Part shown: positions 31,282-51,195 of the stretch, piece after piece
Numbering within the stretch: position 1 is the first letter of the stretch
Layout: each line of letters starts with the position of its first letter
The notes under the pieces: generated by a model
What the model saw: the letters and a program-made list of their open reading frames with translations, nothing else
The model's database searches: none
Told to the model about the DNA's origin: nothing
From: a virus
Lineage: Duplodnaviria > Caudoviricetes
Length of the DNA stretch: 64,000 nucleotides
Strand: one strand, 5' to 3'
Virus record (IMG/VR): IMGVR_UViG_3300029288_000057
Span: 192,001 to 256,000 of that record
Program-made: the position numbers and the translations under genes

Positions 31282-32949
31282 ATGAGTGAATTATTAAACA
31301 GCGGTAAAGTAGGTTTGACAGTGTTCAAAGACTTAGCCGAACAAAGAAAAGCAATCGTTAGAAACTGGAGTGAATCTGGTTTGCTTGAAAACCTTAATGG
31401 TATGAAGAAAACTAACATTGCACAACTTTTAGAAAACCAAGCGCATCACATGTTAAATGAAGTAACATTAGATGCATCAGCAGGTAGATTTGACACAGTA
31501 GCTTTCCCAATAGTACGTAGGGTTTTCTCTCGTCTTTTAGCTAATGAAATCGTATCTGTACAACCTTTAGCTCTTCCTTCAGGACTTTTGTTCTACATGG
31601 ATGCAAGAGTATCTTATGCAGGTTCTGACAATACACAGGCCAATCCAGTTTCTCACGAAACAGCATGGCAAACTGCAAACGGAAGAATGAGTAAAGTTGC
31701 TCCAGCTAATACAGCAAATGGACAAGCTGGTCCTACATTCTGTAACACAACTGCATACGAAAGATTCTATAACAATAGAGGTTTCGATTTGTCATTTGGT
31801 ACAGGTGAAACAGCTCAGGGAACCGCTTATCCATTAACAATTTCTGGAAGCAGTTTTTCAAACGGTCTCGCTGCAGTAAGCGACCTCGCTTTAGGAACAG
31901 GATTTGATGTAAGTAAACAACAATCAAGTGCAACTGTAAGATTTTCTGCTCACACTGCAGTTTATTACAGTGCAGGTTCACAAAACATCCTTATCGTAGC
32001 AGCAGGTGGAAACATTCCTTTCTTCTCACAAATTCAAACATGGACAGAAGATATGTTTGCTGACAACCAAGCAAATGTTGTATTTGATTTAAGACCAGCT
32101 TCTGTAATTGGTTCTGACTTCAATACAGCTATGTTAAACAACGGTGCTGGACTATTTGGCTCACTTTTCCCAATTGGTTTTACTCCAGTTTATGAAGTGT
32201 ACAATAACTTAGAAGGTAAATCAGAAATGGCAGAAATCACATTAAGATTCTCTTCTGTAACTGTTAATACCATCACACGTAAATTACGTGCACATTGGAC
32301 ACCTGAATTAGCCCAGGATTTAGAAGCATACCACAGTATTGATGCTGAAGCTGAATTAACAGCTTTATTGTCAGAACACGTGGCTGCTGAAATTGACAGG
32401 GAAATTATTATTGATATTGCTAACCAAGCACCTTTCCGTGCTCGTTGGGACTATCAAGGATTATCAAACAACGCTAACTTCTTCGGTACTCAAAAAGACT
32501 GGAACCAGACTCTTATCACAAGGATTAACGAACTTTCTGCACAGATACACAAAGCAACTCTTCGTGGTGGTGCAAACTGGGTAGTTTGTTCTGCTGAAGC
32601 TGGTGCAATCTTTGACGACTTAGAATATTTCCACGTTGATACTTCTGCTTCTCCAGAATCAGAAAAATACAACTTGGGAGTTGAAAAAATCGGAAACTTG
32701 GGTTCACGTTACGTAGTCTATAAAGACCCTTATTTACCATCACAATTGGTTCTTTTAGGACACAAAGGAAACACATTCCTTGAAGCAGGTTACATCTACG
32801 CTCCTTATATTCCATTACAATTAACACAGACTATCACTGACCCTAACGACTTCACACCTCGTAAAGGAATCATGACTCGTTATGCTAAAAAAATGGTTAA
32901 CAACAGGTTCTACGGTGTTATTTATATTGACAACATCAACACTTACTAA
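31282..32949 (+). CDS. Major capsid protein (T4 gp23-like)
   Basis: LLENQA, FPIVRRVF, VSVQP, RKLRAHWTPELAQDL, EIDREII, YAPYIPL, GIMTRYA. Confidence 0.96.
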   Translation: MSELLNSGKVGLTVFKDLAEQRKAIVRNWSESGLLENLNGMKKTNIAQLLENQAHHMLNEVTLDASAGRFDTVAFPIVRRVFSRLLANEIVSVQPLALPSGLLFYMDARVSYAGSDNTQANPVSHETAWQTANGRMSKVAPANTANGQAGPTFCNTTAYERFYNNRGFDLSFGTGETAQGTAYPLTISGSSFSNGLAAVSDLALGTGFDVSKQQSSATVRFSAHTAVYYSAGSQNILIVAAGGNIPFFSQIQTWTEDMFADNQANVVFDLRPASVIGSDFNTAMLNNGAGLFGSLFPIGFTPVYEVYNNLEGKSEMAEITLRFSSVTVNTITRKLRAHWTPELAQDLEAYHSIDAEAELTALLSEHVAAEIDREIIIDIANQAPFRARWDYQGLSNNANFFGTQKDWNQTLITRINELSAQIHKATLRGGANWVVCSAEAGAIFDDLEYFHVDTSASPESEKYNLGVEKIGNLGSRYVVYKDPYLPSQLVLLGHKGNTFLEAGYIYAPYIPLQLTQTITDPNDFTPRKGIMTRYAKKMVNNRFYGVIYIDNINTY

Positions 32950-32968
32950 TCTAGGTGAATACAATAAG

Positions 32969-32995
32969 AAGGGGCTGAATTTCAGCCCCTTTTTT
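32969..32995 (+). terminator. Intrinsic terminator after major capsid gene
   Basis: aaggggctgaa-t-ttcagcccctttttt. Confidence 0.85.
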
Positions 32996-33050
32996 ATTTT
33001 ACAATATTTATGAATCTTTTATAATTTATAACTATTTATAAAAAAACAAA

Positions 33051-33395
33051 ATGTTAAGCTCAAAAGACAATACAACATTAGTAATTTTAAATCCAGGAAG
33101 ATATGATGTTGATTCCTGTGAAATAGAGGATTGTCCAAAAGAAATTTTGTATATTGAAAGTGGTTTAGTAGAAATTTTTCCACTTAATGGAAATTCTTTT
33201 TTTTGGAATGCTACTGCTGGAATGAAAATTAAACTTGTTGTTAAAAAAATTTTAATTTCATCAGGATTGTTTTGTGCTTTCTTTGTTGCATACAATGGAG
33301 ATGCGCAAGGCTCTGTGGAAGAACTCTCTTATTTAATTGATGAGAGTGGTAATAATTTTGTTGATGAATCAGGTAATAAATTTATAATGATATAA
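33051..33395 (+). CDS. Putative virion structural/adaptor protein
   Basis: C-terminal YLIDESGNNFVDESGNKFIM repeat motif; TATTTAT upstream. Confidence 0.55.
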   Translation: MLSSKDNTTLVILNPGRYDVDSCEIEDCPKEILYIESGLVEIFPLNGNSFFWNATAGMKIKLVVKKILISSGLFCAFFVAYNGDAQGSVEELSYLIDESGNNFVDESGNKFIMI

Positions 33396-50120: not shown

Positions 50121-50165
50121 AAAGACGATTTAGAATATTGTTGAATATTTATATTAAATAAACAG

Positions 50166-50474
50166 ATGAAAATATTTACAGGTCAAACGATTTATGAGAC
50201 AATTGTGTCTGTAGACACAAATAACAATCCAGTTTCTGCGGCAACATTGACGACAATTCTATATAAGAATGGCACTGCCTATACAGAAAGTTCAGTAAGC
50301 GTTTCCTTAACTGATGTAACAAACGCAATATTTACTGTCTCATGGTCTGCAGTATCTTATGGAAATTATCAGTTATATTCGAAAAATGAGACAACAAATC
50401 TTATATATACTTCTGATGTTTATTTAGCGGTGCCTGATGATGAAGAAACGGCCACTGTATATGTTGGACTTTAA
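50166..50474 (+). CDS. Small Ig-like virion protein
   Basis: 102 aa, Ser/Thr-rich, TATTTAT upstream. Confidence 0.6.
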   Translation: MKIFTGQTIYETIVSVDTNNNPVSAATLTTILYKNGTAYTESSVSVSLTDVTNAIFTVSWSAVSYGNYQLYSKNETTNLIYTSDVYLAVPDDEETATVYVGL

Positions 50475-50487
50475 AGAATAATTAAAA

Positions 50488-51195
50488 GTGGCAGACAGAG
50501 AAGTAAAATATATTTTTAGGAAAAAGGACACTTCTGGTTCTACGTTACCATCTGATGGGATGGTCGCAGAGCCATTTGTTAACACTTTTGAGGGTAGGAT
50601 GTTCTTTTATGGAACTCCTGGTGGAAGCTATAGTGCTGTAACTGGACAACCCAATGTATTTGAGGTTGGTGCAAATGTAGATTATATATACGCCAAAAGT
50701 GGAATCACAACTCCTTATATTAATGCTGGAATTATGCTTTCTGGTGGAACGAATTTATATGATATATTTATACCTTCTGGAAGTTCTACTGGGGGTGGTG
50801 GATATCCAATACAACCTGGATTAAACACATATACAGGAGGAACATATAGTTCACAAACGATAAATGTTTCTGCGGCCACTTTGGATAATTTATCTGTAAG
50901 CGGAGCAACTTCTTTAGGTTCAGTTTCTGCGACGACTTTAATTTCTGGAAGCACAAATTTGTACGATATATTTGATGTAAAAGGAAGTGAGGATATAACT
51001 CGTGTTCAGCCAGGAGCCAATACATATACGGCGGGAACAGACAATAACCCGTCTGTAAATGTTTCTGCTGCGACTTTGGATAATTTAGCTGTAAGTGGAG
51101 TCTCGACTTTGAGTATTATCACGGCAACGACAATTTCTGCAACGACAATAGTGTGTGCAAGTTTACCAAGTCCCTATTTTACTTGGGATATGTAA
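50488..51195 (+). CDS. Short fibre-family protein, paralog of 45327..47972 and 43317..43817
   Basis: Two SG(G/S)TNLYDIF-QPG(L/A)NTYT modules; C-terminus identical to that of 45327..47972. Confidence 0.72.
   Translation: MADREVKYIFRKKDTSGSTLPSDGMVAEPFVNTFEGRMFFYGTPGGSYSAVTGQPNVFEVGANVDYIYAKSGITTPYINAGIMLSGGTNLYDIFIPSGSSTGGGGYPIQPGLNTYTGGTYSSQTINVSAATLDNLSVSGATSLGSVSATTLISGSTNLYDIFDVKGSEDITRVQPGANTYTAGTDNNPSVNVSAATLDNLAVSGVSTLSIITATTISATTIVCASLPSPYFTWDM

Follow-up and report, generated by a model that had tools for sequence, protein, structure and literature searches.

A short hydrophobic-[S/T]-[G/A]-x-Thr motif marks the outer virion proteins of a clade of uncultured jumbo phages and is a possible site of O-glycosylation

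Virions assemble in the cytoplasm, and in mycobacteriophages Freeman et al. reportedly demonstrated in 2023, by chemical means, modification of the capsid and tail-tube subunits. For Che8 and related cluster F1 mycobacteriophages, the proposal is that soluble glycosyltransferases encoded by the phage decorate structural proteins in the cytoplasm, giving the particle a glycan coat (PMC11256854). The uncultured 291-kb phage studied here resembles that system in encoding predicted soluble glycosyltransferases, namely a GT4-like enzyme, four GT2 and one GT10-like enzyme in a glycan island, and a GT1 encoded outside the window (the 64,000-nucleotide stretch that we analysed). It differs in that capsid and tube are not enriched in the four-residue motif described below, which extends over sheath, baseplate, neck and fibres and is known from sequence alone. 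In the serine-rich-repeat (SRRP) adhesins, the cytoplasmic GT-B (GT4-type) enzymes GtfA/GtfB O-glycosylate many Ser/Thr residues in repetitive, S/T-rich surface proteins ahead of export or assembly (PMC6973325). SAST-like tetrapeptides occur in those acceptors as well as in this phage, but the SRRP acceptors are long, low-complexity Ser-rich runs, whereas the sites here are isolated, lie in folded domains and always pair Thr at +3 with a hydrophobic residue at -1. The enzyme in the window is also only distantly GT4-like, and no GtfB-like partner was identified.

The soluble heptosyltransferases TibC and Aah (GT9-like, using ADP-heptose) modify Ser/Thr at regular positions of the beta-helical repeats of TibA and AIDA-I. 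The periodic motif in the fibre modules of this phage resembles those regular sites, although TibC and Aah belong to another enzyme family than the GT4-like protein and their acceptor is defined by its fold and not by a short sequon. The general O-glycosylation of the Bacteroidota, the phylum of the probable host, takes place in the periplasm at D-(S/T)-(A/I/L/V/M/T) and needs Asp at -1; it shares with the present motif a three-position pattern in which a hydroxyl acceptor is followed by a small or aliphatic residue. To our knowledge, no described system reads a motif such as the one found here.

Region 31282-51195 of the window holds 19 ORFs, in which [S/T]-[G/A]-x-[S/T] occurs 134 times against approximately 40 expected (39 in global shuffles, 42-45 in local shuffles over 10-30 residues), with 32-70 matches for the 11 other orders of the same residue classes in a permuted-order control. 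The original prediction had picked out such tetrapeptides in virion proteins; all of those that it named are found in the sequence, and the excess holds under both kinds of shuffling. Two thirds of the matches (89 of the 134) lie in four fibre proteins encoded on the plus strand that have repeat modules in common (blastp E 1e-9 to 1e-38): a fibre of 933 aa (33397..36198; 35 matches vs 8.0 expected, with per-protein expectations here and below taken from whole-protein shuffles), a tail fibre of 881 aa assigned to PHROG tail fibre families (45327..47972; 27 vs 7.5), the C-terminal modules of which are homologous to the two smaller proteins, and fibre-module proteins of 166 aa (43317..43817; 12 vs 3.1) and 235 aa (50488..51195; 15 vs 2.8). 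The 933-aa fibre contains about four tandem repeats of about 77 residues (LSATTLSANTIISAGTNI...VNVTGDTVSGQLNV) and reaches 26.2 bits for Pfam PTR (phage tail-fibre repeat, cut-off 27), and in the fibre modules the motif has a periodicity of 5-7 residues. PDB searches by sequence matched no solved structure to the two long fibres, and among cultured phages neither the region (megablast) nor the 166-aa fibre protein (tblastn) found a match. Convergence across non-homologous proteins, as first suggested, is overstated for the fibres, whose modules are homologous. The remaining 15 ORFs of the region hold 45 matches against 17.7 expected in shuffles.

Among these, the excess was found in the tail sheath (39517..41925, plus strand, Pfam Phage_sheath_1/1C; 14 vs 4.7), the gp13/Ad2-like neck protein (36522..37736, plus; 5 vs 1.6), a 91-aa protein (36235..36510, plus; 3 vs 0.9), a 102-aa protein (50166..50474, plus; 4 vs 0.8, three of them in the x-Thr form) and, on the minus strand, a BppU_N-like protein of 118 aa (43868..44224; 3 vs 0.6). 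It was weak in a 569-aa protein with a Pel9A-like beta-helix N-terminus (48411..50120, plus; 11 vs 5.5), and for the Gp23-type major capsid protein alone (31282..32949, plus) it was not significant in shuffles (4 vs 2.1, p=0.16). The rarity first noticed in the tube, terminase, DnaE and enzymes was borne out in the counts: the tube (44675-45163) has no match, the terminase 1 vs 1.2 and DnaE 3 vs 1.7, and the glycan enzymes of the window are at or below expectation in whole-protein shuffles. The portal (2 vs 1.3) and a gp6-like wedge are likewise not enriched. Beyond the window the excess reaches a baseplate cluster (genome 153.8-175.8 kb), and 31 non-fibre virion proteins together hold 117 matches against 43 expected (z 11.8). 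The remaining genome is at expectation (1.03x), the non-virion proteins with 96 vs 93 showing no avoidance of the motif.

The motif as originally written is enriched but too broad. In an unbiased scan of about 10,000 three-position class patterns, [ST][GA].T ranks first in the 31 non-fibre virion proteins (95 vs 22, z ~15.5), and the same scan of T4 virion proteins peaks at z ~5. Position 0 is restricted to S/T, +1 to G/A (Ser 1.0x) and +3 to Thr (Ser 1.0x): S[GA]xT and T[GA]xT occur at 4.4x and 3.9x, against 1.4x for S[GA]xS and 0.75x for T[GA]xS. All three positions depend on each other, with 1.00x for [ST][GA]x[^ST], 0.94x for [^ST][GA]x[ST] and 0.89x for [ST][^GA]x[ST]. Pro is absent at +2, hydrophobic residues border the motif at -1 and +4, and L/F/Y/W are favoured at -1. 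In contrast to the Bacteroidota sequon, from which the motif was rightly predicted to be distinct, Thr at +3 is here the third fixed position, and acidic residues are underrepresented at -1 (D/E at 0.28x background in the non-fibre proteins, 0.14x in the fibre modules), with no Glu there in 95 sites. The sharper form, hydrophobic-[S/T]-[G/A]-x-Thr, is a real short linear motif; throughout the clade, this phage included, it is four- to fivefold over chance in fibre, sheath and outer tail proteins. Its codons are mixed and the five other reading frames have no excess, which indicates a signal at the protein level and rules out a DNA-level motif. A single domain inserted into many proteins is also ruled out, as the flanks carry almost no sequence information and blastp homology was found only among the four fibre proteins.

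With an S/T content of 15-31% in the enriched proteins and the region's matches concentrated in repeated homologous modules, an S/T/G/A-rich composition together with a few duplicated fibre repeats might be thought to produce the excess. We reject this as very unlikely, because neither the global and local shuffles nor the permuted-order control reproduces it, it stays in the 31 non-fibre proteins, the motif tops the pattern scan and S/T-rich outgroup proteins are at 1.0x. The three-way dependence and the sharp residue specificity support statistics like those of a recognition site instead of a composition effect.

The phages are T4-like jumbo phages, probably of Bacteroidota hosts, and the motif marks one clade. 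Each of the 51 sheath loci with at least 49% identity has it at 2-5.7x, including the closest relative used for comparison (G001, sheath 82% identical, 3.8x), and it is present also in lineage-specific proteins that have no homologue in the phage studied here (G000). A subclade at 51-53% identity (G002 of 222 kb, G003 of 135 kb and ten shorter contigs) falls inside the motif clade and has the motif undiminished; its contigs lack terminase, portal and baseplate genes and are thus incomplete. The sister group is at ~1x for this motif and has [S/T]-[G/A]-Ser instead (2-5.6x), a shift that is concerted over many unrelated proteins and is seen also inside sheath orthologues, at two of the same loops. 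The original prediction had raised the question of different motifs in related phages, and this is such a case. There was no excess of the motif in T4 (34 vs 36), Mel-JY01, Flavobacterium phage immuto or G004, all phages without the GT4-like gene, and the first three rule out a generic property of tail fibres.

In the sheath, 11 of the 14 matches have the strict x-Thr form and 10 of these 11 lie within residues 101-466, the outer insertion domains. Judged from secondary structure and domain position in an AF2 model (pLDDT 80; best PDB match T4 gp18), the sites are at strand ends, strand starts, loops and short 3-10 turns and never mid-strand, which agrees with the surface exposure that the prediction implied, as the loops and strand ends belong to exposed outer domains of the predicted model. 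About eight sheath sites keep their position across the clade. Between G000 and G001 orthologues the motif is kept at 66% of sites against 36% expected, with S/T at position 0 conserved at 89% (background 74%) and Thr at +3 at 80% (background 64%); Gly/Ala at +1 is conserved no more than other Gly/Ala in these orthologues.

ST-turns, ST-motifs and helix capping boxes are universal folding elements, and it is a realistic possibility, if short of an even chance, that the motif is an unmodified element of this type, that is, a cap favoured at strand ends or turns of the S/T-rich beta structure in the outer domains. It would then have been inherited from the clade ancestor and spread by repeat duplication and exchange of fibre modules, which fits the concentration of matches in homologous, periodic fibre modules. 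TAYT and SGTT in the sheath model indeed have a hydroxyl at i and i+3 starting a turn or short helix, and the exact placement of the sites at strand ends, strand starts or 3-10 turns, their positional conservation across the clade and the hydrophobic residues at -1 and +4 all point in the same direction. So do the undiminished motif in the 51-53% subclade, in which no glycosyltransferase was detected on the incomplete contigs, the lack of avoidance in non-virion proteins and the fact that T4 fibres and immuto, with no known glycosylation, have their own ~2x excess of related patterns ([GA][ST]x[ST/T]). However, such an element is not expected to switch on in one clade and to be replaced by [ST][GA]S in the sister group, in a concerted change across many unrelated proteins. 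T4, Mel-JY01 and the sister group also lack the motif, although their proteins of the corresponding families are just as S/T-rich. At +1, Gly and Ala are interchangeable and Ser is excluded, and Ser does not substitute for Thr at +3, a pattern that is unusual for a turn needing a special backbone angle. The flanks are not conserved, so that the motif is not a shared domain, and the presence of the motif in lineage-specific proteins also speaks against a purely structural origin.

The leading explanation, to which we give a probability of roughly 40%, is a sequon: the motif would be kept because it is read by a trans-acting factor, most plausibly a soluble phage O-glycosyltransferase. The best candidate for the enzyme is not in the glycan island but is the GT4-like GT-B glycosyltransferase predicted at 22059..23432 (plus strand), which is co-oriented with the late structural genes. 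As a single sequence it scored 23.0 bits against Pfam Glycos_transf_1 (cut-off 26.4), and its family profile (A5) matched GT4 enzymes of the PDB, 5i45 at E 3.8e-9 and PglA at E 1.3e-6. The model has two Rossmann-like domains in a GT-B fold (AF2 pLDDT 88, pTM 0.85), with GlgM, HepE, PglA, BshA, MshA and PimA as the top Foldseek matches (E 3e-14 to 1e-10). E-x7-E, the C-terminal-domain motif of GT4/GT-B glycosyltransferases, is incomplete: E332 is invariant in 18 homologues and residue 340 is Leu.

At least 540 IMG/VR contigs carry the GT4-like gene. None of the evaluable contigs of the 61-83% subclades lacks it, G005-G008 have it too, and it accompanies the motif in three subclades. Around distant homologues, 40 of the 47 informative flanks have the motif at 2x or more, and pooled these flanks give 1616 vs 428, or 882 vs 119 with a hydrophobic residue at -1. 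The 735-kb LR756501.1 has the gene at 33% identity and a barely alignable sheath; 13 of its large ORFs are at 3x or more and its other ORFs at 85 vs 82. No motif excess is seen in Klebsiella phage KP13-16, whose homologue is at 24%, and the gene was not found on the contigs of the incomplete 51-53% subclade, neither in G002 and G003 nor in the ten shorter ones. Homologues of 27-29% identity on small contigs from the same sample might be taken to rescue the G002 exception, which is probably wrong, as these contigs seem to come from another phage of smaller size (a Toprim primase and a terminase lie within 11 kb, and there are no other G000 homologues). The Glyco_trans_1_3 enzyme of G002 is rejected as a shared factor, having no homologue in G000 or G001 and occurring on a single IMG/VR contig. 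For the G004-type GT1-like gene, taken as a case in which another enzyme might go with another motif, the 80 flanks hold no S/T-rich ORFs. The lineages with the motif amount to one clade and one long-branch megaphage, so that one or two events underlie the association of gene and motif, which would arise for any clade-specific gene.

The window also contains part of a ~32-kb glycan island (357..16926, minus strand), to which the motif had originally been linked as an adjacent operon. Besides the GT2 and GT10-like genes it encodes radical SAM enzymes, NeuB (4650-5474), a CMP-transferase (CTP_transf_3, 7931-8596) and an MptE/Maf-like transferase (8644-9381; PF01973 at 44.7 bits over only 44 residues, profile positions 15-58) that adjoins NeuB and the CMP-sugar synthetase. 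A Maf-like gene beside NeuB and a CMP-transferase is the classic context of O-linked sialic-acid-like sugars on a surface filament, the flagellin system, which the window resembles in this arrangement; we know of no sequon for Maf enzymes. In contrast to that system, G001-G004 lack the cassette (3257-9381), and three of them, G001-G003, still have the motif: G001 has no homologue of the cassette, PF01973 was found in none of G001-G004, and G002 and G003 share 0 of the 34 island proteins, as do the ten shorter contigs of their subclade. The proposed link therefore does not hold, and the island, being variable among motif-bearing relatives, is ruled out as the determinant of the motif. This sets the motif, be it modified or structural, apart from the neighbouring glycan island, which may act on the virion, on DNA or on the host surface.

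The short-linear-motif statistics would be the same for a site of another trans-acting factor, acting by phosphorylation, ADP-ribosylation or as an assembly chaperone, or for a weak patch binding host-surface glycans. No glycosyltransferase is common to all motif-bearing genomes (incomplete contigs included), an Hsp20 chaperone is in the core shared with G002 and G003, and an ADP-ribosylglycohydrolase (23475-24254) adjoins the GT4-like gene. The latter is, however, missing from the relatives L138 and L140-L142, which keep the motif, and the 25 listed out of 36 Pfam families in the 41 core proteins scanned include no kinase, ADP-ribosyltransferase or other protein-modifying enzyme, which makes such a factor improbable in our view.

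The enrichment and specificity of the motif, its location in the sheath model, the extra conservation, the distribution over the clade, the sister-group motif and the co-occurrence with the GT4-like gene are observations; a modification of the motif, its nature as a sugar and the identity of the enzyme are inferred. On the preferred reading, O-glycosylation, the motif lies on exposed loops and strand ends in the outer domains of the sheath, the periphery of the baseplate, the neck and the fibres, and a soluble O-glycosyltransferase, for which the GT4-like protein is the candidate, would act in the cytoplasm on one or the other of its two hydroxyl residues while late assembly proceeds. Any part played by the glycan island would be confined to supplying or extending the sugar in some lineages. 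The widest version, that a large uncultured group of jumbo phages coats its tails and fibres by sequon-directed O-glycosylation through the GT4-like enzyme, with another enzyme reading [S/T]-[G/A]-Ser in the sister group and islands diversifying the sugar, is still tentative and, judged from genomic data, somewhat doubtful.

If the motif is a structural cap, it would represent a clade-specific building rule for tail proteins, helpful in modelling and in spotting outer virion proteins among unannotated ORFs. If it is an acceptor site, virion glycosylation would be a widespread and sequence-predictable property of environmental jumbo phages, beyond a few mycobacteriophages. The modified residues could then be read from genomes and changes of the motif between lineages linked to changes of enzyme, and the effects of a sugar coat on host range, evasion of defence, particle stability and grazing would become testable. 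Should sequon-directed O-glycosylation prove true, no O-glycosylation sequon would have been defined before it for the particles of bacterial viruses.

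The tetrapeptide [ST][GA]x[ST] had been proposed as an O-glycosylation sequon recurring in the virion proteins encoded at 31282-51195, and every tetrapeptide listed in the original prediction was found in the sequence. In most of the proteins named, it exceeded the expectation from 2000 composition-preserving whole-protein shuffles: 14 matches vs 4.7 expected in the T4-type sheath (39517-41925), 35 vs 8.0, 27 vs 7.5, 12 vs 3.1 and 15 vs 2.8 in four fibre proteins, with the neck protein and two small proteins (50166-50474 and 43868-44224) also above expectation. The Gp23-type capsid protein (31282-32949) was likewise named as a carrier, but its count (4 vs 2.1) is not significant alone. 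There was no excess in the gp19-like tube protein (44675-45163, minus strand), the large terminase (51347-54166, plus strand), the DnaE-type polymerase (56594-60103, with DNA_pol3_alpha and PHP domains), the T4-type portal (54209-56311) or any glycan enzyme. Within the terminase lies an intein (Intein_splicing 1e-13) that carries a LAGLIDADG endonuclease domain (LAGLIDADG_3 1e-10). The gene inserted between the sheath and fibre genes (42058-43113, plus strand) encodes a DUF7487/HNH-type homing endonuclease and not a tube protein. The window takes up positions 192001-256000 of one virus contig of 290,886 bp and has a G+C content of about 31-35%, and no close cultured phage was found, the top capsid match being 34%.

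Together the 19 ORFs in 31282-51195 held 134 matches vs 39 expected. Local shuffles within windows of 10-30 residues raised the expectation to 42-45 at most, and each of the eleven remaining arrangements of these residue classes gave 32-70 matches, so the excess is due to the order of residues and not to composition. The idea of convergence in non-homologous proteins needs trimming, since four fibre-type proteins (starting at 33397, 43317, 45327 and 50488), which hold 89 of the 134 matches, have repeat modules in common (blastp E 1e-9 to 1e-38); the one of 933 aa has a unit of about 77 residues in about four copies. The 15 remaining ORFs nevertheless retained the excess (45 vs 17.7), as did 31 virion proteins from which five fibre-module proteins had been left out (117 vs 42.8, z 11.8), and there was none in the 331 other ORFs of the genome (96 vs 93). 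Outside the window, another virion cluster, which encodes the baseplate periphery (genome 153.8-175.8 kb; L082, L083), has the same excess at sites that are scattered and do not form repeats (18 vs 4.4, 10 vs 2.9 and 10 vs 2.4, among others). This cluster includes one fibre-module protein, and its gp6-like wedge protein is without excess. The fibre, baseplate and sheath proteins of T4 had none (34 vs 36). As the excess persists against global and local shuffles and permuted orders and outside the fibre modules, an artefact of composition or repeats is very improbable.

When about 10,000 three-position class patterns were scanned without bias in the non-fibre virion proteins, [ST][GA].T ranked first (z about 15.5); the top pattern of the T4 virion proteins had a z of about 5. 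All three positions are needed together: [ST][GA]x[^ST], [^ST][GA]x[ST] and [ST][^GA]x[ST] each occur at 0.9-1.0 times expectation. Only Ser or Thr serves at position 0 and only Gly or Ala at +1 (about 4.4x each; Ser at +1, 1.0x), and the requirement at +3 is for Thr only (95 vs 22, Ser 22 vs 21). Proline is absent throughout at +2, and position -1 prefers Leu, Phe, Tyr and Trp and is depleted of acidic residues. There is almost no information in the flanks, so the motif is not one domain family, and the mixed codons together with the lack of excess in the five other reading frames indicate selection on the protein.

The placement of sites in the sheath was studied through secondary structure and domain position in an AlphaFold2 model (43 homologues, pLDDT 80; best match T4 gp18). 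In this model 10 of the 11 strict sites lie within residues 101-466, inserted outer domains not present in the sheaths of small contractile systems. None of them is mid-strand; they occupy strand-final residues, positions immediately ahead of a strand, loops or short 3-10 turns. Between orthologues of this genome and its relative G001 (45-94% identical), the motif was kept at 53 of 80 aligned sites, where background class conservation predicts 36%; Ser/Thr at position 0 was kept at 89% vs 74% and Thr at +3 at 80% vs 64%, and Gly/Ala at +1 was conserved no better than other Gly/Ala. Most of the clade carrying the motif has about eight sites in common in the aligned sheaths, and many others are sporadic. 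An unmodified structural turn or cap is a serious possibility, if not the one we favour, as the hydrophobic flank, the strand-end position and the periodicity in fibres would fit it also. Some other recognition function is unlikely. For an O-glycosylation sequon we give a tentative probability of about 0.4. Virion glycosylation in mycobacteriophages (as cited in PMC11256854) and glycosylation of serine-rich adhesins by GT-B enzymes (PMC6973325) offer precedents, and our literature search found no paper on such a motif in phage virions.

An IMG/VR search with the sheath returned 79 loci. All 51 with sheath identity of at least 49% had a 2-5.7x excess in their ORFs, most at least 3x. The 28 more distant loci had 0-2.0x, only L066 (1.74x, z 3.0) being significantly above expectation, and their top pattern was [ST][GA]S, enriched 2-5.6x. 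The change of motif can be seen within the orthologous sheaths: clade sheaths carry 9-13 x-Thr sites ([ST][GA]xT) vs about 2.5 expected, and 8 of 11 aligned outgroup sheaths carry 7-12 [ST][GA]S sites vs about 2.3; two sites of the two kinds share loops, at window sheath residues 110 and 152. In a quickly computed maximum-likelihood tree, built on the conserved C-terminal part of the sheath, all the x-Thr lineages formed one clade (SH-aLRT 95) with the [ST][GA]S lineages as sister group; T4 and a 735-kb phage were on long branches. In the sister group (L053-L081 and contig G004), S/T-rich virion proteins were at 1.0x for the x-Thr motif, and T[GA]S reached 7.5x in L061.

The original prediction tied the motif to the adjacent glycan island (its window part 357-16926, minus strand: NeuB, CMP-sugar synthetase, MptE/Maf-like, four GT2, GT10-like and radical SAM enzymes; upstream of the window GT1, GDP-mannose dehydratase and DegT aminotransferase). 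This link fails, since motif-bearing relatives lack the NeuB cassette or all 34 island proteins. In G001 (372 kb), whose sheath is 82% identical and whose motif is at 3.8x, the cassette (3257-9381) has no homologue. By tblastn or phmmer, G002 (222 kb) and G003 (135 kb) have none of the 34, nor a GT2, GT10-like or GT1 orthologue, though both contigs are incomplete, with terminase, portal and baseplate genes missing too. G001-G004 contain no member of the MptE/Maf-like family; its gene here (8644-9381, minus strand) and the cassette occur in this genome only among five compared, and the cassette seems to have been inserted recently into an older deoxy-sugar/GT island shared with G001. Judged by gene content, the glycan operon is not the partner of the motif; the sequon reading has partial support. 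Glyco_trans_1_3, the sole clear glycosyltransferase of G002, was rejected as a shared factor, having no counterpart here or in G001 and being unique in IMG/VR. Among the 25 Pfam families listed, out of 36 in the 41 core proteins that this genome has in common with G002/G003, none is a recognisable protein-modifying enzyme. Among the other products of G002 (L086-L097) are reprolysin-like peptidases, a sulfotransferase and a phenylalanyl-tRNA synthetase-like protein; PKD domains occur too, as does the type IX secretion sorting domain Por_Secre_tail, which agrees with a Bacteroidota host.

A better candidate for the partner is encoded at 22059-23432 (457 aa), on the strand of the late structural genes. 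Alone it matches Glycos_transf_1 below threshold; a profile of 18 homologues matches GT4 structures (5i45, E 3.8e-9; PglA, 1.3e-6), and its model (pLDDT 88) shows the two domains of a GT-B fold, nearest to GlgM, HepE, PglA, BshA, MshA and PimA. Directly 3' lies an ADP-ribosylglycohydrolase gene (23475-24254, plus strand, E 3.6e-34), gone from several relatives that still have the neighbour genes (L138, L140-L142), followed by one for a 790-aa VWA-domain protein (24288-26660, minus strand). The GT4-like gene is syntenic in closer relatives, upstream of the capsid module. It is present in every evaluable contig of the subclades with 61-83% sheath identity and in the basal branch of the motif clade (G005-G008), where the motif is at 2.0-3.5x in G006-G008 and at 14 vs 2.0 in three ORFs adjoining the gene in G005. 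In contig G023 (of L011) it matches as two halves of one 809-aa open frame (16940-19330), which suggests an in-frame insertion (intein or domain).

Relatives of the protein are encoded by at least 540 IMG/VR contigs. Where the flanks held enough S/T-rich protein, 40 of 47 were enriched at least 2x (pooled 1616 vs 428; with hydrophobic -1, 882 vs 119). The 735,411-bp phage LR756501.1, with a sheath barely alignable (26% over 140 residues), has a homologue at 33% and 13 large ORFs at 3x or more for the motif, its other ORFs being at 85 vs 82. It also has huge G-x-S-G / G-T-x-G arrays, at 2212 matches vs 236 expected; the 24 proteins with these arrays resemble collagen-like or glycine-rich repeat proteins. 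The x-Thr excess is missing in phages without the gene: T4, Mel-JY01, Flavobacterium phage immuto, G004 and other sister-group contigs; in two huge phages without it, the little data near sheath/capsid genes gave 6 vs 3.9 and 11 vs 4.6. A 349-aa homologue lies beside Methyltransf_21, GT2 and terminase genes on a small-phage-like contig (L381; jgi 3300032050 Ga0315906_10009255), so the enzyme family is found outside the jumbo-phage clade too.

One clade and one long-branch genome carry the motif, so the association amounts to one or two evolutionary events, and any clade-specific gene would show the same co-occurrence. The gene was not found on the incomplete contigs of the nested subclade with 51-53% sheath identity, which keeps the motif at 3-5x, also in lineage-specific proteins. 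Small contigs of the same metagenomes with 27-29% homologues were considered as its missing part; they are probably another phage, since they have primase and terminase within 11 kb and nothing else in common with this genome. Non-virion proteins do not avoid the motif. In the sequence data, the motif bears, both in its statistics and in its evolution, the marks of a site recognised by a trans-acting factor, for which the conserved GT4-like enzyme is a concrete candidate.
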